This document shows positions 45,863-63,890 of a stretch of 64,000 bases of DNA, in pieces (position 1 is the stretch's first letter; every line of letters begins with the position of its first letter). The position numbers were made by a program, and so were the translations under genes. The notes beneath the pieces were generated by a model. That model saw nothing but the letters and a program-made list of their open reading frames with translations, searched no databases and was not told the origin of the DNA. The stretch spans positions 15,228-79,227 of the forward strand of contig JAUVXW010000016.1 in the NCBI GenBank assembly GCA_030603385.1, given 5' to 3'. This DNA comes from Promethearchaeota archaeon. Lineage in GTDB: Archaea; Asgardarchaeota; Lokiarchaeia; Sigyniarchaeales; SOKP01.

Positions 45863-45863
45863 T

Positions 45864-48593: not shown

Positions 48594-49537
48594 CTATACA
48601 TACTTCCTCCTGGATCTGTTTTAACTTCGATTGTTTGTTCCTGTGGTTTTACTAAATTTGTTATTGATTTTGCCATTTCTTTAATTCCCTTGGCCATCTC
48701 AAACATAGCATCTTTAAGCTCGGAAATTTCTGTTTCAATATTTTCAAGTTTGTTTGGCATATCAAAATAAGATTTTACTTTTTCGATATTATCAGTTTCT
48801 TCCTCTCCATCTCCAGTTTTAGGAGAATCATCAACTTCTCTTACTTCTGTTGGTGTTTTAATAGTAAGAATTAGTTGTTTTCCTAAGCTCCCAAGAGCAT
48901 TAGGATCTCCATTTGATTTTATAGCAAAATGAGGTTTTTGACAAAACTCAGGATCTCTTTCATCAATAATAAACCCTTTCTTTTGTAAAAATAATCTAGC
49001 TTGTTTACAATCGGAAATTATATCTTCAAAATACTTTTCTAACTCGTTATTAGAAGAAACATATTGCTCATCTATATTCCGGTTAAAATTATAAATAATT
49101 ACGTTATTGCACACTTCAATTTTTTCTAAACCATTAAAATCCTGATAATTAAAAAAGATTAAAAATTTGGTCCAATTATTTAACTCAATTCTTTTTATAT
49201 GTAATCCATAAATAAACCCTTCATTCTGAATTCTATTTAACCATGAAGGTTTTTGAACTATTTTATTTTTAAACCTTAATTTATGAACCCTTACACTTTC
49301 TATCCCTTTTGGCAAAAGTTCCTTATCAGATGTGAATTCTTGTATTCTCTTCTGATTCAGATCACCTTGTTCTAAAAACATTGTTCCTAAATTGGTACAT
49401 TTATATTTCTTAGGATATGACTGGATCTGCTCTATTAGGTTTCGAGATTTAAAGTAAGTAATAATTTTGGATAAAAAACCTTTAGAAACTATACCCTTTT
49501 GGACAATCTCCTGAGCGTAAAAACCTTTATCTAACAT
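48590..49537 (-). CDS. wHTH-containing mobile-element protein, putative replication protein
   Basis: N-terminal wHTH-like segment (EIVQKG.VSK..LSK.I...KSRNLIE...YK.T.LG), HKLRF, PHFA, DDS...EEE and a C-terminal coiled coil. Confidence 0.5.
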   Translation of the reverse strand: MLDKGFYAQEIVQKGIVSKGFLSKIITYFKSRNLIEQIQSYPKKYKCTNLGTMFLEQGDLNQKRIQEFTSDKELLPKGIESVRVHKLRFKNKIVQKPSWLNRIQNEGFIYGLHIKRIELNNWTKFLIFFNYQDFNGLEKIEVCNNVIIYNFNRNIDEQYVSSNNELEKYFEDIISDCKQARLFLQKKGFIIDERDPEFCQKPHFAIKSNGDPNALGSLGKQLILTIKTPTEVREVDDSPKTGDGEEETDNIEKVKSYFDMPNKLENIETEISELKDAMFEMAKGIKEMAKSITNLVKPQEQTIEVKTDPGGSMYR

Positions 49538-49690
49538 TTCAGCTTATATAAGACCTGTAATTCATAAAGAAATAAATAGAATGTTAGATGAACTAGATTC
49601 TGAGAGAGAAAAAAATATTGAACTACAAGAATTATTAAAAAGTGAAGAATATAAGGAAATATTAAAAATGTTAGAAACTAATAAAAGATA

Positions 49691-49831
49691 CTAGAAATTT
49701 CCTACTTCAGAACTATCAATAGCATTTATGAGAATTTCTTTTACTTTCTCTTCTATTTTCTGGTTGGTTTTTTTACATAAAAATATTAATTCTTTATATT
49801 TATCATCAGGAAGTTCAATTTCGATTTTTAT
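49691..49831 (-). CDS. Small RHH-like protein (KIEIELPD family), probable ATA start
   Basis: IKIEIELPDDKYKELIFLCKKTNQKIEEKVKEILINAIDSSEVGNF; AGGTG 8 nt upstream; paralogous to 56763..56909 and to the C-terminus of 58188..58760. Confidence 0.6.
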   Translation of the reverse strand: MKIEIELPDDKYKELIFLCKKTNQKIEEKVKEILINAIDSSEVGNF

Positions 49832-49886
49832 TTTTATGACACCTAAATTTAATAATTCTTAAATCTTTTGTTCCAAATTGTATATA

Positions 49887-50050
49887 TTTTTGTCGAATAT
49901 TTAACATTTTAGTAATTCAGAAAATTCTTACCGTGTAATGATATTTCTGAGAGAGGGAAGGGGGTGATTGGAAGTAAAAGTAAGATTTAAATTTTGTCGG
50001 AATATTCTTCTTATTTGTAATAAATCCTATAGAATCTTCTATAAAAAAAG
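49887..50050 (+). repeat. Element X copy 1 (site - hairpin - purine tract - site - operator)
   Basis: Highly similar to 56968..57133; contains the TCAGAAA...TTTCTGA hairpin at 49917-49950. Confidence 0.9.
50028..50043. promoter_or_regulatory. Palindromic operator TATAGA-N4-TCTATA
   Basis: Perfect copies here and at 57111-57126; one-mismatch copies at 56932, 59133 and 59436. Confidence 0.6.
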
Positions 50051-50059
50051 AGGTTTTAA

Positions 50060-50674
50060 ATGTTGGAATTAAACAAGAAAAGATATATATTGATTAGAAA
50101 AATCATAAAAATTGTTATTATTTTGTTTTGGATTTTTACTTTTTTTACTCCCTTCCTTATACTTGTTTATACAAATTCATTACCTGTAGCAGATGATTAT
50201 ACATATATATGTTGGGGGCATGGATTTGTGGATTCTTCTCCCTATCCTTTATATTGGTTATTCTTTGCTCTATTTTTAGGGGGATTTTTCCTTAGTTTCG
50301 GAAATATAAAAACAAATTATAAAAATCAGATAATTAACAGAAACATTGGAAATATTAGTGGAACAATCATTTTAATGAGTGGAATAGGAATGAGTATATT
50401 AATCCAATTTATTAGAACAGATGTTTCATATGAAGTGAAAACAGGAATAGGAATGTACTTTCCAATAATAATAGCAATTCTTGTTTTTGGTGAAACATTC
50501 TTTTTAAACAGAGTCAAGATTATGGAGGCAGAGATTGTTAAAGAAGAACCGATTGAAGTACAAGAAAGAGAAGTAAAGGAAATCTCTGGAAAACTTTATT
50601 GCTCTTCATGTGGAGAAGAAATCTTGGATAAAACAGGTGATTTCTGTTCTAAATGTGGCGCTCCTTTAAAATAA
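50060..50674 (+). CDS. 4-TM membrane protein with C-terminal zinc ribbon, paralog 1
   Basis: Four hydrophobic helices; CSSC...CSKC tail nearly identical to paralogs 2 and 3. Confidence 0.85.
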   Translation: MLELNKKRYILIRKIIKIVIILFWIFTFFTPFLILVYTNSLPVADDYTYICWGHGFVDSSPYPLYWLFFALFLGGFFLSFGNIKTNYKNQIINRNIGNISGTIILMSGIGMSILIQFIRTDVSYEVKTGIGMYFPIIIAILVFGETFFLNRVKIMEAEIVKEEPIEVQEREVKEISGKLYCSSCGEEILDKTGDFCSKCGAPLK

Positions 50675-50811
50675 TGTTTTTATTTTTTTACTGCTAGATT
50701 GGAGGTAAAACCAAAGTTTAAATTTTGTCGGTCAAAATAAATTATTGATTAAAGACAAATAATGACTTAAAAGATTGAGTTATATTATAATTAAAAAAGT
50801 GGTGTTATTTC

Positions 50812-52458
50812 ATGAAAATTCTAAATATTCAAGCATCAAATTTTAAATCATTTAAAGAGTTCAATTTCGATTTTAAAAAAATCAATGTGATTTTAGGACC
50901 AAACAATAGTGGGAAAAGTAATATATTAAAACTTTTACTTTTGTTGAAGCAGACTTTCACATCTTCTCTGGAATCACCATTAATTTTAAATGGTAATATT
51001 ATTACCTTAGGATCCTATAAAGATATCACTTATAGACACAATAATAGGGACATAGGAATAAATTATCAAATTATAACCCCTTATGAAACAGATAGTAGAT
51101 TTTTTGATTTTATATCTGAGGAGAATCATTACGATTTACAGACTCAATATACTTTTGATGATAAATTAAATATCATTTATTTATCAAATGTAAAAATAAA
51201 TAATTTAAAACAAAATAATCAAATCTTAGATTTTCAAAAAGATAAGAAAATAGTTATAAATAACCGACCAATAGGATACTATTTAACTAAACTTAATACA
51301 GATCTCGATAATTTAATCAAAAAACTTGAAGTATTTCCAAAACTATCTATAAAAAAAAGTCATTTATTAAGACTACTTCGTGTACGATTAGAAATCGCAG
51401 AGATTGATTTAAAAAAAGTCTCTGATTTAAAGGATATATTTGACTATTTCAAAGAGATTTTTTTAAGAGCATTATCACGTAAATTGGATTTAAAAATTAA
51501 ATATAATAAAAAATTTATTGAATTTTTCCCGATTTACTCAAGCGATTTAGAACAAATTTATGATTTTAGTAATATACTTGAAAGACTAAATTCCCCTTTG
51601 TTTAGAAGGTTTATCTCAAATGAAATAAACGAAATAATTGGTAGTTGCAATGAATTAACCAATGAAATTATCAAGGTATATGATGAATTAAGAGCTGTCG
51701 CATATAAGTTAGATGTATTAAAAGATGGATTTTCTTCTTATTGTGAAAGAATGCGTTATATTGGACCATTAAGAGAATATCCTAAAAGATACTATCCAAT
51801 TATAGGAGAATCAGCAGAAGATGTCGGGGTTAAAGGGGAATTTGTACCATATTTATTAAAAAAATCTAAAGAAAAATTAGATCCTTGGGCTTATCGTTTA
51901 AGGGGTTTAAATAAAAGAATTCAAGATTGGCTTGTAAAGTTTGAAATGGCAAAAGAAACTGATATTAAGCGATATAAAGAAATTAATGAATTTATATCTA
52001 TTTTTTGTCAGGAATATTTTTCGGGAGTAAAAGTAAACATAAGTGATATGGGGTTTGGAACCTCTCAGGTATTACCAATAATAATTGAGGGCTTTTTTAT
52101 TGAAAGAAATTCTGTATTGATTATTGAACAACCTGAAATTCACCTTCATCCAAAAGCACAATCAACCTTAGGTGATTTATTTATCGAGATTGCAAATGAA
52201 AATAAAATTATAATAGTAGAAACTCATAGTGAACATTTAATCCGAAGAATTCAACGTCGTATAGCTGAAAATAAAATTTCTAATAAAGATGTAATATTCT
52301 ATTATGTTACTATAGGAAAGGAAGGATCTCAATTACAACGATTAGAAATTGATGAGGAAGGATACATAGAAAAGATCCCAGAAGGGTTCTTCGACGAAGA
52401 TTATAAAGAAGCATCTGAACATTTAAGGATTTTAGCAGAAAAAAAAGAAAATAGGTAA
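50812..52458 (+). CDS. ABC-type (AAA_15/AAA_21-like) ATPase with DUF3696-like C-terminus
   Basis: NFKSF, Walker A GPNNSGKS, YIGPLR, signature GFGTSQVLPI, Walker B IEQPEIHLHP, ETHSEH and PEGFFDE. Confidence 0.9.
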   Translation: MKILNIQASNFKSFKEFNFDFKKINVILGPNNSGKSNILKLLLLLKQTFTSSLESPLILNGNIITLGSYKDITYRHNNRDIGINYQIITPYETDSRFFDFISEENHYDLQTQYTFDDKLNIIYLSNVKINNLKQNNQILDFQKDKKIVINNRPIGYYLTKLNTDLDNLIKKLEVFPKLSIKKSHLLRLLRVRLEIAEIDLKKVSDLKDIFDYFKEIFLRALSRKLDLKIKYNKKFIEFFPIYSSDLEQIYDFSNILERLNSPLFRRFISNEINEIIGSCNELTNEIIKVYDELRAVAYKLDVLKDGFSSYCERMRYIGPLREYPKRYYPIIGESAEDVGVKGEFVPYLLKKSKEKLDPWAYRLRGLNKRIQDWLVKFEMAKETDIKRYKEINEFISIFCQEYFSGVKVNISDMGFGTSQVLPIIIEGFFIERNSVLIIEQPEIHLHPKAQSTLGDLFIEIANENKIIIVETHSEHLIRRIQRRIAENKISNKDVIFYYVTIGKEGSQLQRLEIDEEGYIEKIPEGFFDEDYKEASEHLRILAEKKENR

Positions 52459-52482
52459 TAATATCTTAAAAGAATGTAAACT

Positions 52483-52950
52483 ATGACTTGTCGGAAAATA
52501 GTAATAGATACAAATGTGTTCTATACTCTTATTAAAGAATCCCCTTATAAAGACAAATTTGGTATATGTCGTGAATTATTAGATAATATACTAAACCATT
52601 GCTATAATAGAGTTTGTCGCAATACAAAAATTAATGAAGAATACAAAAATTTTGAACGAAAGACGGAAAGATGTAAATATAGGACATATTATAATAAATG
52701 GTACGGACAAATGATGCAGCATCATAAATTTGAGTGGGTAGAATTGGCCAATATTAATGTAAATATTTCCCATGATGATGATCATAAATTTTTTCAAACA
52801 GCTTATAATACCAACGATAAAATAGTCATTACACAAGAAGAGAAATTATTAGAAAAAAGAGATGAAGTATTTGAGAATCATGGAATTAATATTTTAACAA
52901 TTGAAGATGCTAATGAAGTAGTTGCTATAGATGGTCCTGTTAATGCTTAA
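52483..52950 (+). CDS. PIN-domain protein (putative nuclease)
   Basis: IVIDTNVF, EEY, DDDHKF and IVITQE spacing typical of PIN acidic residues. Confidence 0.75.
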   Translation: MTCRKIVIDTNVFYTLIKESPYKDKFGICRELLDNILNHCYNRVCRNTKINEEYKNFERKTERCKYRTYYNKWYGQMMQHHKFEWVELANINVNISHDDDHKFFQTAYNTNDKIVITQEEKLLEKRDEVFENHGINILTIEDANEVVAIDGPVNA

Positions 52951-53000
52951 AAAAAAAGTAAATTGAAATAAAACTATAGGTTTAGATAATAAAAATTTAA

Positions 53001-53110
53001 ATTTTGTCGGTTTAATTAATTTTGATTCTCTTTTTTTCGCTTTTTCTACAAAAATTAGTTAAAATTGATCATTTTAGACATCAAAGTAAAGATTTAAATT
53101 TTTTGTCGTT
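53001..53110 (+). repeat. Element Y copy 1
   Basis: Similar to 57839..57946 and 63294..63402; bounded by TTTGTCG sites. Confidence 0.85.
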
Positions 53111-53202
53111 AAAATAAGGATATATGAGATAAGATCAAATTCAGAAATATACTATTTATTTTATTTCATATTTGAAAAGATTCAATAATAAGGTGTTAAA
53201 AA

Positions 53203-53367
53203 ATATCTCAAGAAAAAAATCGTTTAAAAGTTAAAGATTTTGAAATAGAAATTGAGGGAACTGAATCGTTCATTAATGATAATATTAAGGAAAGTAAAGC
53301 GATTGCTATTCTCTTAAAGACCTTTTCAAAAGACTTATCCCAAAAACAGCAAGAAGACAATAAATAA
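53203..53367 (+). CDS. Small hypothetical protein (54 aa), probable ATA start
   Basis: ISQEKNRLKVKDFEIEIEGTESFINDNIK...; AGGTG 7 nt upstream and an in-frame TAA two codons upstream. Confidence 0.5.
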   Translation: MSQEKNRLKVKDFEIEIEGTESFINDNIKESKAIAILLKTFSKDLSQKQQEDNK

Positions 53368-53414
53368 TCCTCTTTTTACTTTTTCTTTTTTACTTAACTA
53401 AGAAAAAGGAAGTA

Positions 53415-53573
53415 TTGGAAGTAAAAAGAAATATATTGATTGCAAAAGGATTAAAATATTTTGGGTTCGTTATGATTAATAATGGAGATTGGAAGTTTCA
53501 CTTCAACAGAAGAGAAGATATTACCTCAATAGAGAATTTTATCAAAGAGGTTTATTTTATTAAAGGTGAATAA
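53415..53573 (+). CDS. Small hypothetical protein (52 aa)
   Basis: C-terminus EDITSIENFIKEVYFIKGE is paralogous to 53923..54018. Confidence 0.5.
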   Translation: MEVKRNILIAKGLKYFGFVMINNGDWKFHFNRREDITSIENFIKEVYFIKGE

Positions 53574-53811
53574 AATGGTAGGTTGTGAAATCTTAACGCT
53601 TAGGTTGGAGGATGATATTAAATTAGAAATTAATAATTGGCTTTTATCAAACAAGGAAAAAAAAATTAAATTCATTCAACACACTTACATTCCACCAGTA
53701 ATTATTCCCATTTCTGAGAAGGATCCTATAAAAAACCAACCCAGGATGGAGAATGTCGCTTACGCAAAAAAACGAGGTTATCTCTTAGTTTTTTTTTATT
53801 TTGAAACTTAA
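53566..53811 (+). CDS. Small protein, Cse60/DUF2758-like (putative)
   Basis: EINNWL..N..KKIKFI.HTY...F.F pattern; paralog of 54011..54223. Likely start is ATG 53575. Confidence 0.6.
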   Translation: MNKMVGCEILTLRLEDDIKLEINNWLLSNKEKKIKFIQHTYIPPVIIPISEKDPIKNQPRMENVAYAKKRGYLLVFFYFET

Positions 53812-53922
53812 AACCTATAATCTTTTTCTTTTTTTTTATTTAACTATGCATTTTTATTTGCTTTAAATATGATATTCAAAAATATATAGTAACTAAATTT
53901 AATTAATAGAAGAGTGATAAAT

Positions 53923-54018
53923 TTGTTAAAATGCGAAATTCTAAAAATAGATCCAAAAGAAGATGTTAAAAAAATAGAGGATTTTATTCGAGAGATCTAT
54001 TTTATAGAAGGTGAGTAA
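53923..54018 (+). CDS. Mini-protein (31 aa)
   Basis: MLKCEILKIDPKEDVKKIEDFIREIYFIEGE; paralogous to the neighbouring ORFs. Confidence 0.5.
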   Translation: MLKCEILKIDPKEDVKKIEDFIREIYFIEGE

Positions 54019-54223
54019 AATGTTAGGATGTAAAACTTTAACTTTTAGGAATTACAATGAAATCGAGACTGGATTAAACAACTGGATTTTATTAAACCAA
54101 GAGAAAAAAGTTCGATTTATAACTCAATCATATATCCCACCAGATAGGACACCTGTAAATGAAGAAGGGGGGGATGAAGAAAAAGCAGGATTTCATCTAT
54201 ATACGATTTTCTTTGTAAGTTAA
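54011..54223 (+). CDS. Small protein, Cse60/DUF2758-like (putative)
   Basis: Paralog of 53566..53811. Likely start is ATG 54020. Confidence 0.6.
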   Translation: MSKMLGCKTLTFRNYNEIETGLNNWILLNQEKKVRFITQSYIPPDRTPVNEEGGDEEKAGFHLYTIFFVS

Positions 54224-54449
54224 ATTCAAAATTTAATCTTGATTTTTTATATTTAACATATAGAAGTTTTATTGATAAAGAGAGGGATTCTATACAATTG
54301 AAAATTGATAAGATTGAAGAAAAAGATTAAAAACAAATCATAATTTCAATAGAGTTTTCTTTTTTCTTAATATCCATCTAATTTAATATCAGATAGAATT
54401 AATTATAGTTTAATAGAAACTTTAATATTTTTATTCTAAATATAAATCA

Positions 54450-54972
54450 ATGAAAATGACATCATTGAAAAAAGATAATCTAAAAAATAATCACAACAGC
54501 AAAAAATTAAATAATTTAAACGGAAAGGAATGGTTAAGGTATTCTATTAGTGTTTGGGATATTTTTAAAACTCCTGAAGAGAGAAAATTAAATCATCCTG
54601 CAATGTTTCCTTTAGAACTTTGTGAAAGATTGATTAAAATTTTTACAAAAGAAGACGATATTGTATTTGATCCTTTTTTTGGATCAGGAAGCACTTTAAT
54701 TGCAGCAAAAAAGCATAAAAGAAAAGCAATTGGTTTCGAGATTAATAAAGATTATGTTGAACTATTCAAAGATAGAATTAAACAAACTAATCTATTAAAT
54801 TTTGATACTCAGAAACAAGAGAAACTAATCAAAATTCATCAAAAAAATGCTAATCTGATTTCGGAAAAATTGGATAAAAATTCAATTGATCTATGTTTAA
54901 CGTCCCCCCATATTGGGATATCTTAAGAATGAAGCGATCAGCAACTATTTCGAATACAGCCTTTTTAAATGA
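54450..54972 (+). pseudogene. Truncated, frameshifted N4/N6 DNA methyltransferase
   Basis: HPAMFP and DPFFGSGST are present. The SPPY motif is split by a C6 tract at 54904-54909 (C7 would give TSPPYWDIL), and the restored frame stops at 54972. Confidence 0.85.
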
Positions 54973-55083
54973 CGCCTAAAAAAGTAAAACCTAAAAAAGT
55001 TTAAATATCAATAACTCAAATATATTAGTGAAAAAAATCCACACTGAAAAAAAATTTTAAAATATTAAAAATAGGTTAATTTC

Positions 55084-56553
55084 TTGGAGACTCCAGAAAA
55101 AATTTTTTCATATTTGGAAGATAATAGTTATATGCATGAAATAGGGAATGCGGATATTAAACAAGAATGGAGTGATGAGACAGGAGAGTGGGTCAGATTT
55201 TATTTAATAATTAAAGATGATGGATTAATTCAAGATATCAGTTTCTTAAGCAGTGAACACAATGTAGTTAAAGCTACTGCAACTTATCTTTGTCAAAAAT
55301 GGAAAGGCCAACAGTTAAAAAAACTTAAGAGCTTAATTGTGACAAAATATATTGATCGTGAAAAAGTATTGGAGGATTTAGGTAATCCTTCAAAAGATTT
55401 TCATCCTTATATAGAGCTTGCCATTAAAACACTCGAACATTGCTTTGATATATGGCAGTGGAAAAAGGCTGCCACATCAAATTTGATGGTAAAGACAGGT
55501 CTTTTCTATAATTTTAAAAAAACTATCTTATTTTTTTGGATATTTTATATTCTTATGTGGGGTTGTTGGGTATTAAGTGATATTGAATTGTGGTTGGATG
55601 TTTTTAGTCTAACTTTTGTAATTCAAACTATTGGTGCATTTCTTTCTATTATTGCTACTATATTTTTAGTTAGAGGAACCCGTGATGGGGTCAGAAAAAT
55701 CACTTTCGAGAAACCAGATGATTTTCGTAACCTTTTCTGCCACGATTATTATTTCGACAAATATCGTTATGAACTAGACCGGAGAATTAATAGTACTCGT
55801 TGTAAATATCTTGGTCTTATCTTTATGGGAATTATTGAAATTTTTCATATATTAGATTTTATACCGCATATTTACACTAGTTTTATTAAACAAGATTGGC
55901 TTGCTGTTATTGGTTTTATAACAAACATAATCTGGTGGGTAGTATTTTATTTTTTTATTTTTATTGTGGCTTATCAAGTATTAATTGTAATAATTACTAT
56001 TGCTCAATTGGGAACTCATGTAAAACAGTTAAGTATTACACCATTTCTTAAACTTGACTTTGAGAAACTAACTAAGATTAATACTGATGATATGGTGACC
56101 TATTTACAGTTTCATAGATATACACGAATATTCGGTGAATTCCTGTTTAAATTTACACTAAAGGTAATAATCTTCATTGTTTGCATGGATTTAGCTTTTA
56201 TGCACATGGGGGGGATTATAGTATCTCTTTTGATGTTTGGGACTTTTTTTTGTGTCTCAATATTCATTCTTCCGCAATTTTCAATCCATAATATTCTTAA
56301 AAAAACAAAGAACAAGATAATAATATTTTACGAAGATTTATACGATAAAATTAAGCTAGAGATATTCAAAATATATGCTTCTGAAAAAAAGGAGGGGTTG
56401 CAAGATAAAATTTCTCAAGTTGAATTTATTAAAGCCGAGATAAAATTTACTGGTGATCTTGGTACTTGGGCCTATGATTTCCCTAAAGTTATGAGACTTG
56501 TTTATGCTGCTTGTTTATCGTTTATCCCATTAGTGATTGAGATATTCATTTAG
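55084..56553 (+). CDS. Multi-pass membrane protein with an N-terminal Cys-less IscU/NifU_N-like domain
   Basis: The first ~125 aa follow IscU/SufU spacing (TGE.V.FYL.I.DDG.IQDISF...ATA..L....KG...L...L); about 7 TM helices follow. Confidence 0.6.
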   Translation: METPEKIFSYLEDNSYMHEIGNADIKQEWSDETGEWVRFYLIIKDDGLIQDISFLSSEHNVVKATATYLCQKWKGQQLKKLKSLIVTKYIDREKVLEDLGNPSKDFHPYIELAIKTLEHCFDIWQWKKAATSNLMVKTGLFYNFKKTILFFWIFYILMWGCWVLSDIELWLDVFSLTFVIQTIGAFLSIIATIFLVRGTRDGVRKITFEKPDDFRNLFCHDYYFDKYRYELDRRINSTRCKYLGLIFMGIIEIFHILDFIPHIYTSFIKQDWLAVIGFITNIIWWVVFYFFIFIVAYQVLIVIITIAQLGTHVKQLSITPFLKLDFEKLTKINTDDMVTYLQFHRYTRIFGEFLFKFTLKVIIFIVCMDLAFMHMGGIIVSLLMFGTFFCVSIFILPQFSIHNILKKTKNKIIIFYEDLYDKIKLEIFKIYASEKKEGLQDKISQVEFIKAEIKFTGDLGTWAYDFPKVMRLVYAACLSFIPLVIEIFI

Positions 56554-56618
56554 CATTTGTTGTAATCTCTCTTGAATCTCTGTCAATATGGCATTATCAA
56601 CTGTTCCCATGAAATACT

Positions 56619-56771
56619 ATGAAAATCCCAAGAGATTTGAAAGATCTTTTTCAAAAATACATCGAAAAAAATCCAGGTCTAGGGTTTAATAAAGTTTCTC
56701 AACTTGTATTACATATTTTACAAGAAAAAGCATTTGAATTAAAAAAAGAACTGAAAGAAAAATCAAAATAA
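56619..56771 (+). CDS. Ribbon-helix-helix (CopG-like) protein
   Basis: MKIPRDLKDLFQKYIEKNPGLGFNKVSQLVLHILQEKA; strand-helix-G-helix pattern. Confidence 0.6.
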   Translation: MKIPRDLKDLFQKYIEKNPGLGFNKVSQLVLHILQEKAFELKKELKEKSK

Positions 56772-56909
56772 GTTTAAATCTTCATTCCTGCTTTTTATTT
56801 CTGTTTTTAAAGTATTTTCAATATATTTCTTTCTTTTTATTCCAAAATTTAGTTCTAAATATTCAAAAAAAGTTATATATTCATCAGGAAGTTCAATTTC
56901 GATTTTTAT
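56763..56909 (-). CDS. Small RHH-like protein (KIEIELPD family), probable ATA start
   Basis: IKIEIELPDEYITFFEYLELNFGIKRKKYIENTLKTEIKSRNEDLNLF; AGGTG 7 nt upstream. Confidence 0.6.
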   Translation of the reverse strand: MKIEIELPDEYITFFEYLELNFGIKRKKYIENTLKTEIKSRNEDLNLF

Positions 56910-56967
56910 TATCTTACACCTTTGAATCTTATATAGAATTCTTTATAGAATACCTCAAGTATTGATA

Positions 56968-57133
56968 ATTTTTGTCGGATATTTAACAGTTTACTAATTC
57001 AGAAAATTATTACCGTGTAATGATATTTCTGAGAGAGGGAGAGGGGTGATTGGAAGTAAAAGTAAAGATTTAAATTTTGTTGGAATATTCTTCTTATTTA
57101 TAATAAACTCTATAGAAAACTCTATAAAAAAAA
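56968..57133 (+). repeat. Element X copy 2
   Basis: Near-duplicate of 49887..50050; hairpin at 56999-57032; operator at 57111-57126. Confidence 0.9.
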
Positions 57134-57154
57134 ATATGATGAAATAGATGAATT

Positions 57155-57796
57155 ATGTTAATAACAAAAGATAGATATAACCTATTTAGAAAGCTTGTTA
57201 AAGGAATTATTATTATTCTATGGATTGCGTTATTTATTTGCCCGATAGTAACTTTTAATTGGAAAGATGTATGGGGTTCATATTCTTTTCCTTATTTCGT
57301 ATGTTATTGGCATGGTGGAGATGATTTTGCTCCTTACCCTCTTTATTGGTTCTTTGTGATTTTATACTTCATTGGATTTTTTCTCAATTTTGGAAATATA
57401 AAGAGAGATTACAAAAAACAAATCATTAATAAAAATCTTGGATATATTAGTGGATTACTTGTTTTATTAGGAATAGTAGGATTATCTTTTATGTCAATTA
57501 CATCAACGATTGGAATTAATGATAGATTAAGCCTACCTCCAGAGGTAATTATTCATACAAATATAGGGATAGGAATGATTTTTGCGATAATGATGATATT
57601 TATTATCTTTGCTGAGACAATATTCTTAAACAGAGTCAAGATTATGGAAGCAGAGATTGTTAAAGAAGAACCAATTGAAGTACAAGAAAGAGAAGTAAAA
57701 GAAATCTCTGGAAAAATTTTTTGCTCTTCATGTGGAGAAGAAATCTTGGATAAAACAGGTGATTTCTGTTCTAAATGTGGATCACCTTTAAAATAA
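57155..57796 (+). CDS. 4-TM membrane protein with C-terminal zinc ribbon, paralog 2
   Basis: Divergent N-terminal region but near-identical last ~55 codons versus paralogs 1 and 3. Confidence 0.85.
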   Translation: MLITKDRYNLFRKLVKGIIIILWIALFICPIVTFNWKDVWGSYSFPYFVCYWHGGDDFAPYPLYWFFVILYFIGFFLNFGNIKRDYKKQIINKNLGYISGLLVLLGIVGLSFMSITSTIGINDRLSLPPEVIIHTNIGIGMIFAIMMIFIIFAETIFLNRVKIMEAEIVKEEPIEVQEREVKEISGKIFCSSCGEEILDKTGDFCSKCGSPLK

Positions 57797-57838
57797 TTAT
57801 CTTCTTTTTTATTGTCAGACTGGAAATAAAAATAGGAT

Positions 57839-57946
57839 ATTTATCGGTTTAATGACTTTTGGTTCTCTTTTTTTCGCTTTTTCTACAAAAATTAATTAAA
57901 ATTGATTATTTTCGACATTGAAGTAAAGATTTAAATTTTATGTCGG
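57839..57946 (+). repeat. Element Y copy 2
   Basis: Near-identical to 63294..63402; ends in a CGACAT...ATGTCG imperfect inverted repeat. Confidence 0.85.
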
Positions 57947-58002
57947 GGAAATTACTTTTGATTCTCTTTTTTCTCTTTTCTTACAAAATTTAATTTATTA
58001 TT

Positions 58003-58179
58003 ATGACTAAAAAAGAAGAAATGATACGATTAATTCTTAATCCTGACAAAGATCAACCAATTTATGATTTTTTTATAGAAATCAAAAAGCAGTTAGGGTT
58101 AAAAGTAAATACAGAAGTAGCTAGATATTGCATTAAAAAAACATATCAACTTATATTTACAAATAGAAAAGAAGATTAA
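58003..58179 (+). CDS. Ribbon-helix-helix protein
   Basis: MTKKEEMIRLILNPDKDQPIYDFFIEIKKQLGLKVNTEVARYCIKKTY; clear paralog of 59156..59359. Confidence 0.75.
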   Translation: MTKKEEMIRLILNPDKDQPIYDFFIEIKKQLGLKVNTEVARYCIKKTYQLIFTNRKED

Positions 58180-58187
58180 CGCTTTAG

Positions 58188-58760
58188 TTAAAAAATTGCT
58201 TCTCTAAAAGTTGAATTTTTTAATACTTTGGTTTCTATTATTAAAAATTCGGAGATTTCTTCCTCGAGATTTTTATTTTTAATCATTGCTCGAATAGAAA
58301 AAAATTTATAAACTTCATCAGGTATTTCAATTTCGATTTTTACTTTTTCTTTACTTGAATTTTTATTATTTATTTGTCTGTCTAAATTGACATAGCTACT
58401 CAAATAAGCATTTTTATTGTTATAGGTAATTCTACATACATAATTCTCAATTGGAATGATTTTCCCTTTTTTTGTGATCCCTCTGAATTGAACAATAGCA
58501 GTTTTATCATTTTCGATTTGAAAATTTTGTAATATTTTTTTCAAATCTTCAGGATGCACTATTTTATAAAATTCTCTCTTTTTCCATTTAGAAATATCGT
58601 CTTGGGAATATCCAAAGATTTTACTGAATTCTTTATTGTAATAAAGTAGATGTCCTCTTTGGATCAAAAGAAACCCTAATTTTGATCGTTCTGCAAAATA
58701 TAGGAACTGTTTATCTTGGAATTTTGTAATAAATTCTCCTTTAATATCTATTTCTGACAA
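58188..58760 (-). CDS. PAS-domain protein with C-terminal RHH-like domain
   Basis: Y.N..F.KIFGYS..., VHPED and TKKG...IE PAS hallmarks; tail KVKIEIEIPDEVYKFF matches the mini RHH-like genes. Confidence 0.8.
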   Translation of the reverse strand: MSEIDIKGEFITKFQDKQFLYFAERSKLGFLLIQRGHLLYYNKEFSKIFGYSQDDISKWKKREFYKIVHPEDLKKILQNFQIENDKTAIVQFRGITKKGKIIPIENYVCRITYNNKNAYLSSYVNLDRQINNKNSSKEKVKIEIEIPDEVYKFFSIRAMIKNKNLEEEISEFLIIETKVLKNSTFREAIF

Positions 58761-58910
58761 TTTTTATAAATCACTTTCGTATGTTATTAGATAAAAAAAC
58801 TCTCGTTATGTATGTAGGGACTAACTTTTTAAACATTTTTGTTAAAATAATATATCTGTTGCGATAATACATATTAGTAATAGGAATTTCTTCCCATTAA
58901 TTTTTATATA

Positions 58911-59035
58911 TTTTTGTCGGTATGTCTCAATCTAGTAATTTCTATAATGATATTTAAGGATTTATTAAATTGGAAATTCTTTACTGTGTAATGGTACTTT
59001 TGAGAGAGGGAGAGAGGTAATTGGAAGTAAAAGTA
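58911..59035 (+). repeat. Element X copy 3 (diverged)
   Basis: TTTTTGTCGG...TTACTGTGTAATG...GAGAGAGGGAGAGAGGTAATTGGAAGTAAAAGTA. Confidence 0.75.
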
Positions 59036-59155
59036 GAAAAATTGCTTGTTTTAATATGGTTTCACTCTATAATAAATTTGACAGTTTATACTTCCCAATC
59101 GTATTTTTACTGCGGATAGACACATTATGCTATATAGAATTCTTTATAGAATAAT

Positions 59156-59359
59156 TTAAATGTGTTCTATCTTGTCTTTATTAAACCAATATTCATACGC
59201 TTTCTTTATACATATCCTTGCGACTTCTGTATTAGTTTTTAGTCCTAAATCTTCCTTTATTTGTTGAAAATAGTCATATAATGGCTGATCTAATTCTTTT
59301 GAAAGATTTAGTCTAATCCCTATTTCTTCTTCGGTTTCGTTGGTTCTATCCATAGACAT
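59156..59359 (-). CDS. Ribbon-helix-helix transcriptional regulator
   Basis: IRLNL...PLYDYFQQIKEDLGLKTNTEVARICIKKAY. Confidence 0.75.
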   Translation of the reverse strand: MSMDRTNETEEEIGIRLNLSKELDQPLYDYFQQIKEDLGLKTNTEVARICIKKAYEYWFNKDKIEHI

Positions 59360-59503
59360 ATATATTTTGAAGAAAATTTAACCTTTTGTAAATTACTCCA
59401 AGTTTATCCTAATTTATCACAAAAACTTATATATCTATAAAAATATCTATAGAGTAACAAAATTGGACAAAAAAAATTAATTAACACAAAAGAGGTAAAA
59501 AAT

Positions 59504-59743
59504 ATGACTATTAATGAAAATATTGAACTAAGACTTACCCTTACCCAAAAAGATCCGTTATATCAACCCTTTTCGAAAATCAAGAAATCCTCAGGAATAA
59601 AATCTAATTCGGAAGTACTTCGTTTTATCATAAAACAGATTTCAAAAATCCCTATTTCTGCTTTAATTCTTGATTTTATGGGTAAAGATGATGTTTCAAT
59701 AAAAAAAATAAAATCTACAAAAAAAGAGGTAATAGGAAAATGA
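59504..59743 (+). CDS. Ribbon-helix-helix transcriptional regulator
   Basis: LRLTL...PLY..F.KIK...GIKSNSEVLRFIIK; divergent from 59156..59359. Confidence 0.7.
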   Translation: MTINENIELRLTLTQKDPLYQPFSKIKKSSGIKSNSEVLRFIIKQISKIPISALILDFMGKDDVSIKKIKSTKKEVIGK

Positions 59744-60966
59744 GTAAAACAAAAACGTATTTATTCCATGAGTTATCTTCATATCTTCCATTATTAGAGG
59801 GGGATGAATTTGATGATTTAGTAGAGGATATTAAACAACATGGACAAATAGAACCTGTTACTATTTATGAAGGTAAGATACTTGATGGGAGAAATCGGTA
59901 TAGAGCTTGTAAGATATTGGAACAAGAGTTAATAATAAGAGAATGGAAACCAAGTACTGCAACTGGATCAACTCCATTACAGTATGTTATTAGTGAGAAT
60001 ATTATGAGAAGACATTTAAATGATAAACAAAAAGCTGAGATTGGGATGTTGTTATATCCTGAGATTGAAAAACAAGTAGAAGAAGAAAGAGTTAAAAAGA
60101 TGGTTGAAACAAAAAAAGAGCAGTTTGGAAAAGGTGAACTTAAATCTTTAGGTGGTCGAGAAGGTTTTGCTACACTAATTAAAAAAGAAAATAGTGTAGC
60201 AAAAAAATGGAAAAAAGAAGATACAACTGCTTATAAGGTTGCTCAAAAAGTTAGAGTTAAACCCGATACGATAATAAAGGTTAAAAAGATCAGAGAATCG
60301 GCATACGATAAAAGTACAGGTGAAATAAAAGATAAAGAGATTGCCGAAAAATGGGAAGAAGCTAAAAGAGAAGATACATCATTAGATGCTGTATATAAAG
60401 AGGCTGTAGAGAAAGAAATTATTGAGGACTTACCTGAAGATTTAAAAGAAGAAGTAAAGAGGGAAAAAGTTAAGGTTAAAGAAGCTAAAGAGAAAAAAAT
60501 TACTTATGAACCAAAGATTACAGTAAAAAAAGCCAAGGCAATTAAAGATTTGCCTAAAGATGTACGAGAAGCTGTTGTGCATTCAGAAGCAGAAATAACT
60601 GTTGAAGAAGCTAAAGAAATTGCTAAGATTCCAAGCGAAGTACTAAGAAAGCAAGAAGTACTTGAGAGAGAAAGAGTCAAAAAACGCCAAGAATCAGAAA
60701 TTAAAAAGAAGAAAGATTTGGCAGAAGGAAAAACTTTACCTAAAGTTAAATATTTTGACAAAGACGCAAATAAAGTTAATAATGTAGAAGTCATTTGTAA
60801 AAAAGCCATTACTGAGCTTACATTTGCTGGTTTAGAAGGATATGGTGAATCTGCCAGAAAAACTTGTATTGAAATGATGAAAGCTGTATTTGAGCATTTG
60901 AGAAAAGAATTGAAAAAAGCAGGAGAAGTAGCACCACGTGTGGTGATAGACGTCGATGCCGATTGA
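59740..60966 (+). CDS. ParB/Srx N-terminal domain protein
   Basis: L.EDIKQHGQ.EPV...ILDGRNRYRAC and SENIMRRHL; HTH-like and charged C-terminal region. Confidence 0.85.
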   Translation: MSKTKTYLFHELSSYLPLLEGDEFDDLVEDIKQHGQIEPVTIYEGKILDGRNRYRACKILEQELIIREWKPSTATGSTPLQYVISENIMRRHLNDKQKAEIGMLLYPEIEKQVEEERVKKMVETKKEQFGKGELKSLGGREGFATLIKKENSVAKKWKKEDTTAYKVAQKVRVKPDTIIKVKKIRESAYDKSTGEIKDKEIAEKWEEAKREDTSLDAVYKEAVEKEIIEDLPEDLKEEVKREKVKVKEAKEKKITYEPKITVKKAKAIKDLPKDVREAVVHSEAEITVEEAKEIAKIPSEVLRKQEVLERERVKKRQESEIKKKKDLAEGKTLPKVKYFDKDANKVNNVEVICKKAITELTFAGLEGYGESARKTCIEMMKAVFEHLRKELKKAGEVAPRVVIDVDAD

Positions 60967-61555
60967 AATAGATGCTGTAGAAAGTGCTATTAGAGAAATG
61001 ACTAAAGCAAGAAGACCAATAAATCCATTAGAAATTTGCTTATATATGGGAATAGAACCTTTTATGATATTACCACATAAAGAAGGAGAATGGGTAGGTA
61101 AAATAGATAATGTGGCAATAATTTATGGTCATATTCGTAAACTACATGAGATACATAATAAATGGCAAAGAAGGTATCGTGAAGCTTATGCGTCTTATAG
61201 AGAAGGATATCTAAATGCGTCTCATTGGGATGTAAAACTGATGAAAATGATTTATTATAAAGATGAAATGACTTACAAAGAATTTATTGATATGCGAGAG
61301 CCAGAAGAGGGTTTAGTTAGGATACCTGATCCTAATAACCCAGATGTATATATTGAGCCAAACCCACAAGAAATAAAAAATTGGCGTATGAAATATATTT
61401 CAGGAGGAAAAAAGACACTTATAACCAGAATCGAAGATGGGATAGATGATGGTACAATTGAAGATACCAGAAAGACCAGAAAAGCCCTTGATAAATTCGA
61501 TCCACAAAAATTCTTAAAATATAAAGAAGAGGAAGAATATGAAGAAGCTCAATAG
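60956..61555 (+). CDS. Hypothetical protein
   Basis: 199-aa ORF overlapping the ParB-like gene; GTGGTG upstream. Confidence 0.7.
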   Translation: MPIEIDAVESAIREMTKARRPINPLEICLYMGIEPFMILPHKEGEWVGKIDNVAIIYGHIRKLHEIHNKWQRRYREAYASYREGYLNASHWDVKLMKMIYYKDEMTYKEFIDMREPEEGLVRIPDPNNPDVYIEPNPQEIKNWRMKYISGGKKTLITRIEDGIDDGTIEDTRKTRKALDKFDPQKFLKYKEEEEYEEAQ

Positions 61556-61682
61556 AGATGGAATCAAATATTCTCTAAGATTAGAAGCTCTTGATAAATT
61601 TTGGGTTAATGATATTACATTTGAGCAATTTAAAGACGAGATAAAAGAGATAGATAAAAAATATCCAAAAGGAACTTATTAA
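61539..61682 (+). CDS. Small hypothetical protein (47 aa)
   Basis: MKKLNRDGIKYSLRLEALDKFWVNDITFEQFKDEIKEIDKKYPKGTY; GAGG upstream and T-rich tract downstream. Confidence 0.5.
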   Translation: MKKLNRDGIKYSLRLEALDKFWVNDITFEQFKDEIKEIDKKYPKGTY

Positions 61683-61736
61683 ATTTTTTAATAATTAATT
61701 TTTTTTATTTTTTGGTTTAATCTTGAACTAATTCGG

Positions 61737-62039
61737 TTGAGAAAACAGACAGGAAATAAATTTAAATTAAAAAAGAAGTTGAATGAATTGGAAATTAGAG
61801 CGATATGTCATAATGGAAAAATCGAGAAAAGAATACATTTTATAAATGGAAGAATTAAACAACTTCTTTATCATAGATGTAAAGAGCTTATAATTTGCAG
61901 AAACACTTTACTTGAACGTGATCCTGTGGTTTCTATATATCCATCACCAAAAACGTTAATTGGGAGATTTAAATCTATGATGTTCAAGAGATATAAAGAA
62001 AAAGAGTTAGATTGGGATGATATATTTAGATTTAGTTAA
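61737..62039 (+). CDS. Hypothetical protein
   Basis: ORF in a co-oriented run; start uncertain. Confidence 0.45.
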   Translation: MRKQTGNKFKLKKKLNELEIRAICHNGKIEKRIHFINGRIKQLLYHRCKELIICRNTLLERDPVVSIYPSPKTLIGRFKSMMFKRYKEKELDWDDIFRFS

Positions 62040-62056
62040 AAAAAGGGTTTAATAGA

Positions 62057-62167
62057 ATGAACTATATAGAACAGATTTTAGTAGTAATGTTTTTATTTGC
62101 TATAATTATCGAGAATTACCTTATATATCATTACCTAAAGAAGTTTTGGGAGTTTTTAAGAGAGTAA
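62057..62167 (+). CDS. Single-TM micropeptide (36 aa)
   Basis: MNYIEQILVVMFLFAIIIENYLIYHYLKKFWEFLRE; stop is 1 nt from the next ATG. Confidence 0.45.
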   Translation: MNYIEQILVVMFLFAIIIENYLIYHYLKKFWEFLRE

Positions 62168-62168
62168 A

Positions 62169-62288
62169 ATGGTTCTATGTGATAATTGTTTGAATAAAGA
62201 TTGTTGTGAATTTGCTTATGATGAAGAGCATCAAGAAAATTGCTCAGATTTCAAAACCGATGAGTATTTTGTAAGAATGATGTTTTAA
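62169..62288 (+). CDS. Cys-rich mini-protein (39 aa)
   Basis: MVLCDNCLNKDCCEFAYDEEHQENCSDFK...; CxxC-x4-C...C pattern. Confidence 0.5.
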   Translation: MVLCDNCLNKDCCEFAYDEEHQENCSDFKTDEYFVRMMF

Positions 62289-62364
62289 TTAGTTTTTATT
62301 GTAAGTGTGTTTAGGTTTCCTGAGCACCAATAAGAATAAATTTAAATAAAAAGAGGTTTAAAAA

Positions 62365-62616
62365 ATGAAATATAAAGATTTAAAATATGTAAGAAGAATA
62401 GTTCAAATTTTTGCGATAGTTAGTATCATTTTAGTATTGCCGTGGTTTTTGTTTTTCTTAGTTGATCCAAATATTCTTATTCCTGAATATAGCTACGATA
62501 AATATTCACTACTTTATATAAACTATTCGATATTATTTTGCTTCTTATTTATAATAATTATAGTGACTAATGCTGGAGTTAAAAGATACTATAATTTAAA
62601 GAAAAAAGAGGTTTAA
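62365..62616 (+). CDS. Small 2-TM membrane protein
   Basis: Two hydrophobic helices with basic termini; GAGG RBS. Confidence 0.7.
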   Translation: MKYKDLKYVRRIVQIFAIVSIILVLPWFLFFLVDPNILIPEYSYDKYSLLYINYSILFCFLFIIIIVTNAGVKRYYNLKKKEV

Positions 62617-62620
62617 AATA

Positions 62621-63250
62621 TTGGAATTAAGCAAGAAAAGATATATATTGATTAGAAAAATCATAAAAATTGTTATTATTTTGTTTTGGATTTTTACTTT
62701 TATTACACCATTCCTTATACATGTTTCTACATCACAATACGATGTGGTAGATGAACACACATTCATATGTTGGGGTCGTGGATTTATAGGTGGTATATCT
62801 CCATATCATTCATTACATTTGTTATTATTTGTTCTATTTTTAATAGGATTTTTCCTTAGTTTTGGAAATGTAAAAACAAATTATAAAAATCGGATAATCA
62901 ATAGAAACATTGGAAATATTAGTGGAATAATTGTTTTAATAAGTGGAATAGGAATGAGTATATCAATCCAATTTATATTTGTTGGAATAGATGTTTTAGA
63001 TGGTTATGAAACAAAAGATGGAGTGGGAATGTATTTTCCAATAATAATAGCAATTCTTGTTTTTGGTGAAACATTCTTTTTAAACAGAGTCAAGATTATG
63101 GAAGCAGAGATTGTTAAAGAAGAACCGATTGAAGTACAAGAAAGAGAAGTGAAGGAAATCTCTGGAAAACTTTATTGCTCTTCCTGTGGTGCTGAAATTT
63201 TAGATAAAACTGGAGATTTCTGTTCTAAATGTGGATCACCTTTAAAATAA
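62621..63250 (+). CDS. 4-TM membrane protein with C-terminal zinc ribbon, paralog 3
   Basis: Nearly identical to paralog 1 except in the two predicted outer loops. Confidence 0.85.
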   Translation: MELSKKRYILIRKIIKIVIILFWIFTFITPFLIHVSTSQYDVVDEHTFICWGRGFIGGISPYHSLHLLLFVLFLIGFFLSFGNVKTNYKNRIINRNIGNISGIIVLISGIGMSISIQFIFVGIDVLDGYETKDGVGMYFPIIIAILVFGETFFLNRVKIMEAEIVKEEPIEVQEREVKEISGKLYCSSCGAEILDKTGDFCSKCGSPLK

Positions 63251-63293
63251 TTTATCTTCTTTTTTATTGTCAGACTGGAAATAAAAATAGGAT

Positions 63294-63402
63294 ATTTATC
63301 GGTTTAATTACTTTTGATTCTTTTTTTTTCCCCTTTTTCTACAAAAATTAATTAAAATTGATTATTTTCGACATTGAAGTAAAGACTTAAATATTTGATT
63401 GG
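63294..63402 (+). repeat. Element Y copy 3
   Basis: Near-identical to 57839..57946; the shared sequence extends back through the 3' end of the TM gene. Confidence 0.85.
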
Positions 63403-63890
63403 GGTTATAAAAATAGGGAAATTTATTCAAAGATAATTTGAGTTAAACATTGGATTTCGCCCTCTATTAAATTCTATTGAGTTTAATCTCTCCCTGATTT
63501 TTTTTATAATTGCTCATATTTCTTTTCCCTTCTCTTTAGGTAAGAATTTAGGATCGATCCAATTAGAAAAATCATAATCATTATATTTTAAAAATTGTAA
63601 TTTTTCAAGGAGTAAACATTCTTTTGAATAGAGTTCGAACAATATTTTTTATTTTCATATTAATTTTGAGTGTAATTTATCATAATTTTCAATTTGTAAT
63701 ATTGAACCTTTTTATCGTTATAATTAATCTTTTCTCTATTTTTGGATGTTTCAATTTTACCACAAAAATCCTATTAAAGTATCAAAAAGAGCCATTATTT
63801 CTTAAAAAAAGAGAAGATTTAAATTTTTTGTCGGTATGATAAGAATGAATAATATTAAAATATTAAAAAAGACATAAATGAGGAATAAAA

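Follow-up and report, generated by a model that had tools for sequence, protein, structure and literature searches.

Three mosaic paralogs of a rare four-helix, zinc-ribbon membrane-protein family on a mobile element of a Promethearchaeota archaeon

Three intact genes assembled from separately inherited modules

A 64,000-nucleotide stretch of contig JAUVXW010000016.1 from a Promethearchaeota archaeon (assembly GCA_030603385.1), hereafter the window, carries three paralogous genes, designated A, B and C, for which the best explanation is that a mobile element carries a rare, previously undescribed family of membrane proteins in triplicate, all copies being functional. The encoded proteins have four membrane helices, followed by an acidic linker and, at the C-terminus, a zinc ribbon with four cysteines (C4). 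The genes are assembled from separately inherited modules, namely promoter/operator/5′ untranslated region (5′UTR), membrane body, linker, zinc ribbon and a 3′ terminator/next-promoter element, and we hold both the anatomy and the mosaicism with high confidence. We know of hardly any work on the proteins that mobile elements or viruses of Asgard archaea place on the surface of their hosts, for which this family provides a compact, testable case; nor do we know of an account of how Asgard membrane proteins are coupled to cytoplasmic machinery.

The three open reading frames (ORFs) lie on the + strand: A at 50060-50674 (204 amino acids), B at 57155-57796 (213 amino acids) and C at 62621-63250 (209 amino acids). 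All three are present at the coordinates given in a previous reading of the window made from the letters alone (the sequence-only reading), with neither stops nor frameshifts inside; C starts with TTG, and the position of A's ATG reads ATA there. At the protein level, C is the closer to A (81% identity) and B the more distant (55%), and a search within the archaeon's own genome gave E values of 1e-66 to 1e-102, placing the paralogy far beyond chance. The whole 3.9-Mb assembly holds only these three copies, all on one contig; two extra weak matches cover the C-terminal 70-80 residues only, that is, the region of the fourth transmembrane helix (TM4) and the tail.

In A, TM1 (50108-50167), outer loop 1 (50168-50245), TM2 (50246-50305), the inner loop (50306-50350), TM3 (50351-50410), outer loop 3 (50411-50446) and TM4 (50447-50509) are followed by the acidic linker (50510-50593) and the C4 zinc ribbon (50594-50671), all on the + strand. 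Among 13 complete close homologs, mean pairwise identity was lowest in outer loops 1 and 3 (0.37 and 0.30), whose lengths vary from 26 to 49 and from 12 to 22 amino acids, respectively, and highest in the inner loop (0.72) and the zinc ribbon (0.76). The outer loops are hence the most variable segments in both sequence and length, in line with the sequence-only reading; the substitutions and indels that it had listed between A and C in these two loops, and the loop sequences that it quoted, agreed with our alignment. The four zinc-ribbon cysteines are invariant (4/4) in alignments of 27-32 sequences. Conservation also extends to parts predicted to face inside, such as the TM2-TM3 loop (FGNIKxNYKxxIINRNLG) and a Glu at the inner end of TM4; E145, a membrane-embedded Glu, is kept in at least 90% of 27 sequences.

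The mosaic structure was analyzed by aligning the three loci with their flanks, sorting informative sites by which two copies agree and submitting the switches between patterns to a permutation test. Only 102 switches were observed vs. approximately 240 expected in permutations (p≤1e-4). Upstream of the genes (49886-50043), 80 sites group A with B (AB|C) compared with 5 for AC|B and 2 for BC|A, the sequence before C being simply different. From the Shine-Dalgarno region to TM4 (50044-50505), AC|B dominates (approximately 140 of 190 sites), with AB|C and BC|A in the minority. The linker (95 nt) is near-invariant, with six informative sites (AB|C 1, AC|B 4, BC|A 1). In the first half of the zinc ribbon all eight sites are AB|C, while at its end and in the 3′ flank all 13 are BC|A, a pattern that continues downstream. 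Read as blocks, the body is common to A and C and the linker to all three copies; the zinc ribbon is divided, its first half being common to A and B and its end, together with the 3′ flank, to B and C.

Divergence values followed the same partition. Over the body, B is only about 63-70% identical to A, while the final ~172 nt of the gene match A and C at 92-95%, with a sharp switch approximately 172 nt from the stop; over the last 169 nt, 161 bases are identical between A and B, 156 between A and C and 156 between B and C. Synonymous divergence per site (dS) between A and C was 0.10-0.19 in the body and 0.40 in the tail; between A and B it was 0.8-1.7 and 0.17, respectively. The near-identity of the last ~169 nt in all three copies, from which the sequence-only reading had deduced a homogenised tail, was thus borne out, but a uniform homogenisation was not: since the A-C tail dS exceeds that of the body and the tail itself falls into three blocks, it is a mosaic rather than simply homogenised. 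The ratio of nonsynonymous to synonymous divergence (dN/dS) in the tail (0.05-0.14) indicates strong constraint, and the corresponding ratio of the proportions of differing sites (pN/pS) was 0.38-0.67 in the membrane core.

Similar exchanges were found in metagenomes, where homologous proteins are given P numbers and two DNA contigs with four-helix homologs are named L025 and L026. In P0003, loop 1 corresponds to that of P0006, the core and loop 3 to those of C, and the zinc ribbon to that of A; P0010 joins a body almost identical to that of B to a zinc ribbon of the C type; and P0008 and P0009 have exactly the same loop 1 and a different loop 3. Breakpoints fall at or near module borders. The recombinational mosaicism that had been suspected from the sequence is therefore upheld both by the block switches and by incongruent per-segment nearest neighbours among the metagenome homologs. 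As the clean blocks show, the accessory genes of these archaea are shaped by recombination, both among paralogs and from element to element.

Topology, loops and fold of the membrane body

A Kyte-Doolittle scan revealed four hydrophobic segments (residues ~17-36, 63-82, 98-117 and 130-150 of A). Lys and Arg residues number 3-6 at the N-terminus and 3-4 in the TM2-3 loop, but only 0-1 in loops 1 and 3; the TM2-3 loop of A and C is devoid of acidic residues, and loops 1 and 3 are acidic. By the positive-inside rule, this distribution supports an N-in/C-in arrangement in which the N-terminus, the TM2-3 loop and the tail would be cytoplasmic and loops 1 and 3 would lie outside. Hydropathy and charge counts are thus in agreement with the sequence-only reading, which had placed the variable loops outside and the CxxC...CxxC tail inside. 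That reading had also named three outcomes that would speak against it, and we found none of them: divergence is not uniform along the gene, loop dN/dS is not low, and the loops are not predicted to be cytoplasmic.

An AlphaFold2 (AF2) model of A built with 27 aligned sequences reached a mean predicted local distance difference test score (pLDDT) of 72 and a predicted template modelling score (pTM) of 0.61. The TM helices were modelled at pLDDT 83-93, the loops at 41-56, the linker (residues 155-175) below 50, and a separate zinc knuckle at ~77. Within loop 1, residues 40-62 appeared as coil (pLDDT 41-55), for which an earlier model gave a short helix; neither model placed beta strands in loop 1, at low confidence there.

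These models bear on the proposal, made in the sequence-only reading, that the tetraspan proteins are loosely claudin-like with a beta-rich first loop. In its strongest form, a true relative of the claudin/PMP22 superfamily mediating cell-cell contact in an Asgard archaeon, we consider it extremely improbable. The claudin/PMP22/TARP fold does share with A a four-helix up-down membrane bundle, N-in/C-in topology and a larger first outer loop, and in a VIA-align search of 48,161 chains Cav gamma ranked top (Z 10.5), followed by TARPs, MP20, claudin-15 and claudin-19, with further tetraspan proteins also near the head of the list; the claudin-superfamily matches had Z 8.5-10.5 and a root-mean-square deviation of 3.1-4.0 over 123-142 residues. 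However, soluble four-helix bundles reached Z 8-9 in the same list, and the guidance of VIA-align itself is that Z ~13 is needed for helical bundles to be meaningful. Foldseek returned nothing at E≤0.001 against PDB, with claudin-superfamily chains only among weak rows at E 0.6 or worse. In claudins, the first extracellular loop (ECL1) bears the signature W-(G/N)LW-C-C, whose cysteines form a disulfide. The W-x-x-W-C-C arrangement is absent here, loop 1 containing one Cys only (Y-x-C-W-G in A and C), and only a Gly of this loop is conserved across the wider family. Likewise, no sequence similarity to claudins was found, and the models, of low confidence in loop 1, show no extracellular sheet. 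As the scores stay below Z ~13 and within the range of unrelated helical bundles, soluble ones included, the modelled likeness would be only that of a generic four-helix membrane bundle.

Codon analysis was limited to five DNA sequences (A, B, C, L025 and L026) and accordingly had low power. Loop pN/pS (Nei-Gojobori) ranged from 0.52 to 1.88 over ten pairs, with one-sided binomial P≥0.22 in all, so the diversifying selection invoked in the sequence-only reading did not find support at this power. With loop pN/pS about 1, relaxed constraint fits equally well. This is what the main rival to our favoured interpretation (see below) would predict, in which the proteins are inside-facing membrane anchors with neutral loops, the cytoplasmic face (inner loop, linker and zinc ribbon) being the whole functional surface; they would tether a regulator, the DNA, or a partition or replication protein of the element, and the mosaic would reflect gene conversion between tandem duplicates. 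We regard this rival as somewhat unlikely. In its favour, loop pN/pS does not significantly exceed 1 in any pair, conservation peaks in the inner loop (0.72) and the zinc ribbon (0.76), the units resemble decayed segmental duplications with PAS-gene remnants upstream of A and B, and genes for ribbon-helix-helix (RHH) regulators and a ParB-like protein lie nearby. By contrast, relaxed constraint alone does not predict that synonymous differences per site (pS) between A and C reach 0.36 and 0.73 in the loops vs. 0.10-0.17 in the flanking helices. This raised loop divergence points to exchange or retention of old loop segments and argues against pure neutrality. Moreover, loops 1 and 3 reassort independently in natural homologs, and the same tail occurs on proteins with large extracellular domains.

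Mosaic surface families, such as the neisserial Opa proteins and porins and the variable lipoproteins of mycoplasmas, have conserved ends and variable exposed segments that reassort by recombination. The genes described here are like them in having conserved 5′ and 3′ segments around variable exposed parts and in their reassortment among paralogs or alleles. Our genes differ from those families in that we saw neither a phase-variation repeat nor a silent cassette store nor an invertase target, and in that their loop pN/pS does not exceed 1.

The zinc-ribbon tail and its possible docking role

The tail follows the pattern …EEP…EISGK-x-x-CSSCG-x-EILDKTGDFCSKCGAP-x-K and recurs at 57-92% local identity on several unrelated proteins. 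It is found on single-pass proteins with emp24/GOLD-type and Kre9/KNH immunoglobulin-like (Ig-like) domains: P0019 and P0021 match GOLD-type (52 and 41 bits, cut-off 25.9) and Kre9/KNH entries, both over Pfam cut-offs, and P0175 has precomputed Kre9_KNH and Big_7 matches together with an N-terminal region that is GOLD-like by eye. Further carriers are a family with two transmembrane segments (2-TM; P0018 and P0022-P0028 without P0024) and one soluble protein (P0024). In L026, a gene for a TM/zinc-ribbon protein at 278-940, whose N-terminal part resembles P0020 ('GOLD-like') and in which Pfam matched the zinc ribbon only, lies 60 nt upstream of the four-helix gene; it is preceded by the same 80-nt promoter/palindrome/5′UTR module as A and B, at 86-91% identity. 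P0014 (four-helix) and P0175 (GOLD/Ig-like) each derive from a 4064-nt contig and so probably from one and the same.

Not all members of the four-helix family carry this tail. At least three tail types reassort with bodies; the L025 body, for instance, is 83% identical to A at the nucleotide level over 500 nt up to the TM4/tail border, beyond which the tail is unalignable. Given that the type 1 tail also occurs on non-homologous membrane proteins, it is an exchangeable module rather than a family constant, which departs from the constant signalling tail of the sequence-only reading. We also considered whether the 2-TM family corresponds to the second hairpin of the four-helix proteins; P0018 is colinear with residues 85-209 of C, but the match is not significant without the tail, and the relationship is not claimed.

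The zinc ribbon itself, which the topology would place in the cytoplasm, is joined to the membrane body by the flexible acidic linker (pLDDT <50). The tails match PF13240 Zn_Ribbon_1, PF13248 Zn_ribbon_3 and PF12773 DZR at E 5e-5 to 1e-4, with Zn_Ribbon_1 scores of 22.6-23.3 bits, just under the 25-bit gathering score; the homologs P0006, P0007 and P0016 carry a precomputed PF13240 match. These entries cover a 23-26-residue knuckle only and have no function assigned. A PDB sequence search with the tail yielded only generic knuckle matches, the best (E 0.015) to an uncharacterised protein.

We propose that each protein would insert as an N-in/C-in four-helix bundle exposing only two short, poorly constrained loops, and that the tail may serve as a shared docking module recruiting surface proteins to one cytoplasmic partner. 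The four-helix, 2-TM and GOLD/Ig-like proteins would form a co-regulated, element-encoded surface set, and recombination would keep reshuffling which exposed body joins which tail. As a whole, this docking proposal is held tentatively, our judgement being close to balanced with a slight lean against. It draws on the near-invariance of the 25-residue zinc ribbon and acidic linker across membrane proteins of three unrelated kinds, as would be expected if they bound a common cytoplasmic partner, and on analogy with the zinc ribbons of three characterized systems, ZitP-PopZ, GltJ and CdpC-FtsZ1. Should the tail prove to be a sorting or anchoring signal, it would bear on membrane-protein targeting in the lineage leading to eukaryotes; if not, this is one more orphan membrane family of mobile elements.

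In Caulobacter crescentus, the cytoplasmic zinc ribbon of the membrane protein ZitP binds PopZ (PMC5182065, PMC5182063), and in Myxococcus xanthus that of the membrane protein GltJ binds the linker and MglB (PMC11135422). As in our family, these are cytoplasmic C4 zinc ribbons with a flexible linker, modular with different extracytoplasmic parts. However, ZitP and GltJ are bacterial, bitopic proteins with N-terminal zinc ribbons, encoded by chromosomal housekeeping or motility genes, while the family reported here is archaeal, four-helix, C-terminally tailed and multi-copy on a mobile element, with no detectable sequence relation to them. The zinc ribbon of CdpC from Haloferax volcanii binds the cytoskeletal protein FtsZ1 and tethers it to the membrane, and the protein is, according to its authors, fast-evolving except for its zinc ribbons (preprint 10.64898/2026.07.16.738847). 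Compared by description only, CdpC resembles our proteins in being archaeal and, if the docking proposal holds, in using a zinc ribbon as a membrane tether for a cytoplasmic protein, and differs from them in its association with the membrane through an amphipathic helix, its two zinc ribbons, its long disordered linker and its role in cell division.

The occurrence of the tail on GOLD/Kre9-like single-pass, 2-TM and soluble proteins and the promoter module before the 'GOLD-like' gene support the docking proposal, as do the intact ORFs, the purifying selection, the predicted topology, the block mosaic, the reassortment of bodies and tails, the rarity of the family and the location on an integrase-bearing element beside defence-type genes. 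Several observations weigh against it. The loops are short (12-49 amino acids) and modelled with low confidence, and with their pN/pS not above 1 the outer face need not be a recognition surface. The zinc ribbon, a generic knuckle, has no significant match to ZitP, GltJ or any solved domain. The window itself has no gene for a GOLD-like partner, and its 2-TM gene ends without the tail. Finally, the common tail and promoter could reflect shared descent within one element lineage instead of a shared partner.

The sequence-only reading had named entry or superinfection exclusion, toxin immunity and kin recognition as possible functions. As to what the exposed parts do, the likeliest role would be at the cell surface in element-element or element-host interplay, such as entry exclusion or recognition, but this is a guess that we consider more probably wrong than right. 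A more specific version, which we judge improbable, is that A, B and C are entry- or superinfection-exclusion or immunity proteins, each of which would keep out a related element or virus or counteract a toxin acting on membranes, with loops that set specificity and three alleles that widen protection. Small polytopic membrane proteins do serve in exclusion or immunity in plasmids and phages, examples being TraS/Eex and the immunity proteins of pore-forming colicins. The accessory, multi-copy genes lie on a mobile element, their variable parts are exposed, and they have the defence-type neighbours AAA_15/DUF3696 and PIN, all of which would suit such a function. On the other hand, no cognate toxin, transfer apparatus or virion gene was recognised beside the genes (no PADLOC search was run), loop pN/pS is not significantly above 1, and exclusion or immunity gives no role to a conserved zinc ribbon common to large surface proteins. 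We think it very improbable that the proteins are membrane-damaging effectors or holin-like, with a zinc ribbon that would sense a signal in the cytoplasm and trigger permeabilisation of the membrane. Their small size, the membrane-embedded E145, the charged C-terminal tail and the defence-rich island are compatible with such an activity; three constitutively promoter-equipped copies, a tail common to GOLD/Ig-like surface proteins, the lack of an adjacent lysis or sensor gene and the lack of a family match in Pfam or PHROGs are not what it would lead one to expect.

As a separate observation, the tail-bearing single-pass proteins place an extracellular GOLD domain in a tail-anchored, cargo-receptor-like architecture in Asgard-associated DNA.

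Flanking modules, distribution and mobile-element setting

The upstream module of A (49886-50059, + strand) comprises an approximately 100-nt repeated element, a TATA-like site (AAGATTTAAATTTTGTCGG, 49982-50000, + strand), a palindrome and the Shine-Dalgarno-like AGAGGT. The same element precedes B (56968-57154, + strand), with a TATA-like site at 57065-57083 and the palindrome; the module of A is ~90% identical to 56968-57132. In all, A and B have approximately 266 nt in common upstream, comprising the 3′ remnant of a PAS-domain gene, the ~100-nt element, the TATA-like site, the palindrome and a Shine-Dalgarno-like motif. The PAS-domain gene is intact at 58188-58760 (- strand), and remnants of ~58 nt of its 3′ end (compare 58305-58362) lie before A (49793-49850) and B (56871-56928), from which the A and B units appear to be decayed copies of a larger duplicated segment. 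The palindrome, TATAGA-N4-TCTATA, is located between the TATA-like site and the start codon of A (50028-50045), B (57111-57128) and the 'GOLD-like' gene of L026 (~245-262 of that contig) and is likely an operator for a small RHH-like protein of the element; such genes are present at 56619-56771, 58003-58179, 59156-59359 and 59504-59743.

Downstream, B and C share a 3′ element of ~120 nt, found at 57825-57995 together with a partial second copy after B and at 63280-63408 after C (both + strand). The copy of A (52988-53115, + strand), with a T-rich terminator-like tract and the next TATA-like site, lies 2.3 kb further on, at 52988, and is 85-88% identical to 57825-57945 and 63280-63396. It is separated from A by an insertion relative to B and C (50711-52987, + strand) that encodes an AAA_15/DUF3696 ATPase (50812-52458) and a PIN-like protein (52483-52950) and is flanked by direct 19-nt copies of AAAxTTTAAATTTTGTCGG (50713-50731 and 52992-53010). 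The insertion looks like a defence pair acquired at a repeated site. The repeated TATA-like sites lie 70-90 nt before + strand starts, and on our reading of the sequence they may be core promoters doubling as recombination points, with exchangeable units bracketed between them.

C has no upstream module, its homology to A starting at 62602, 16-19 nt before its start codon. Instead, a 2-TM ORF of 83 amino acids (62365-62616, + strand) ends 4 nt before C, just short of where the linker/zinc-ribbon tail would follow, and its last codons are made up of the ribosome-binding region of C. It is 49% identical over 72 amino acids (BLASTP E 1e-21) to P0018, a member of the tail-bearing 2-TM family. Most simply, a deletion would have removed the DNA from the tail of a 2-TM gene to the ribosome-binding site of the four-helix gene after it, the 83-amino-acid ORF probably being a remnant. 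A search of Rfam matched nothing in 44000-64000.

In assembled contigs from four sediment runs of four studies, in which gene bodies are thinly covered, summed contig depth was 260-800 at the 3′ elements and sites vs. about 50 or less for gene bodies, the high-depth stretches being 52636-53152, 57806-58322 and 62976-64000. By this contrast, the modules for regulation and recombination occur far more widely than does any single cargo gene. Many alternative junctions were seen at the sites, among them one joining 49993 to 63295 (two runs) and one joining 57007 to 59002 (all four runs); their sides are short, and they are used here as support only. Near-identical copies of the A body were present in two runs, with 3-5 differences per 315-390 nt. 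A further, 52-nt copy of the 3′ element/site, 93% identical, is located on another contig of the same assembly (G000:C48:62656-62707), which may be the continuation of the element past the contig end.

A bolder version of the docking proposal, which we hold to be decidedly improbable, takes the promoter/5′UTR module and the linker/zinc-ribbon tail as recombination handles that allow four-helix, 2-TM and GOLD/Ig-like bodies to be swapped under one regulator and onto one docking partner, possibly a host cytoskeletal or membrane-remodelling protein. If true, it would represent an archaeal counterpart of cassette-based surface variation combined with a eukaryote-like sorting tail.

The family is rare. 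A search with the query protein through 36 congeneric genomes and those of 24 other relatives detected no homolog over the full length, a family-alignment search found none in 185,579 species genomes (one genome each), and no relative was found in IMG/VR viral contigs, where the 2-TM and GOLD-like families were not found either. Among 1.8 billion representatives, approximately 17 close homologs and some 25 clusters at 50% identity were identified; wherever a source is named, it is a marine sediment metagenome. The four-helix body matched no family in Pfam, PHROGs or the ESM Atlas, the PHROGs match being to the zinc knuckle only; weak Pfam matches to SMR and DUF4293 (E 0.004-0.006) are probably compositional and were discounted. 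The weak matches that congeners gave, at 31-37% identity over query residues 65-203, are not orthologs but members of a separate chromosomal family of 2-TM/winged-helix-like/zinc-ribbon proteins. Look-alike clusters retrieved with a language model consist of zinc-ribbon membrane proteins and include one Promethearchaeota cluster of 193 members.

In L025 (24 kb), the four-helix homolog has an RHH-like gene on one side and, on the other, genes for a group of large proteins, secreted or single-pass, that includes one of more than 1500 amino acids with YYDGYWW-type repeats; a protein of 815 amino acids and many small ORFs are encoded opposite. Its appearance is that of a virus or plasmid, although no family in Pfam or PHROGs supports this classification.

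In the window, histidine-utilisation housekeeping genes stop at ~44.6 kb and are followed by a tyrosine integrase gene (44747-45862, + strand; Pfam Phage_integrase, 2.1e-15) marking the chromosome-proximal end of the element, and then by accessory genes; the contig ends at window base 64000. The window's pyruvate phosphate dikinase falls into one 90%-identity cluster with a protein that NCBI lists under a Candidatus Thorarchaeota MAG, in keeping with an Asgard host. On the basis of this order, A, B and C are cargo of an integrated mobile element. Their neighbours there are the ATPase/PIN pair, a fragment of an N6/N4 DNA methylase gene (54450-54926, 158 amino acids), several small RHH-like genes and a ParB-like gene (59740-60966); Pfam and PHROGs searches recognised no transfer or virion genes beside A, B and C. 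The integrase has a C-terminal zinc ribbon of its own (CxxC-x11-CxxC, residues ~304-327). Adjoining the methylase fragment are two paralogous small ORFs (53566-53811, 81 amino acids, and 54011-54223, 70 amino acids), both with GTG starts and an N-terminal M-x-K-M-x-GC motif.

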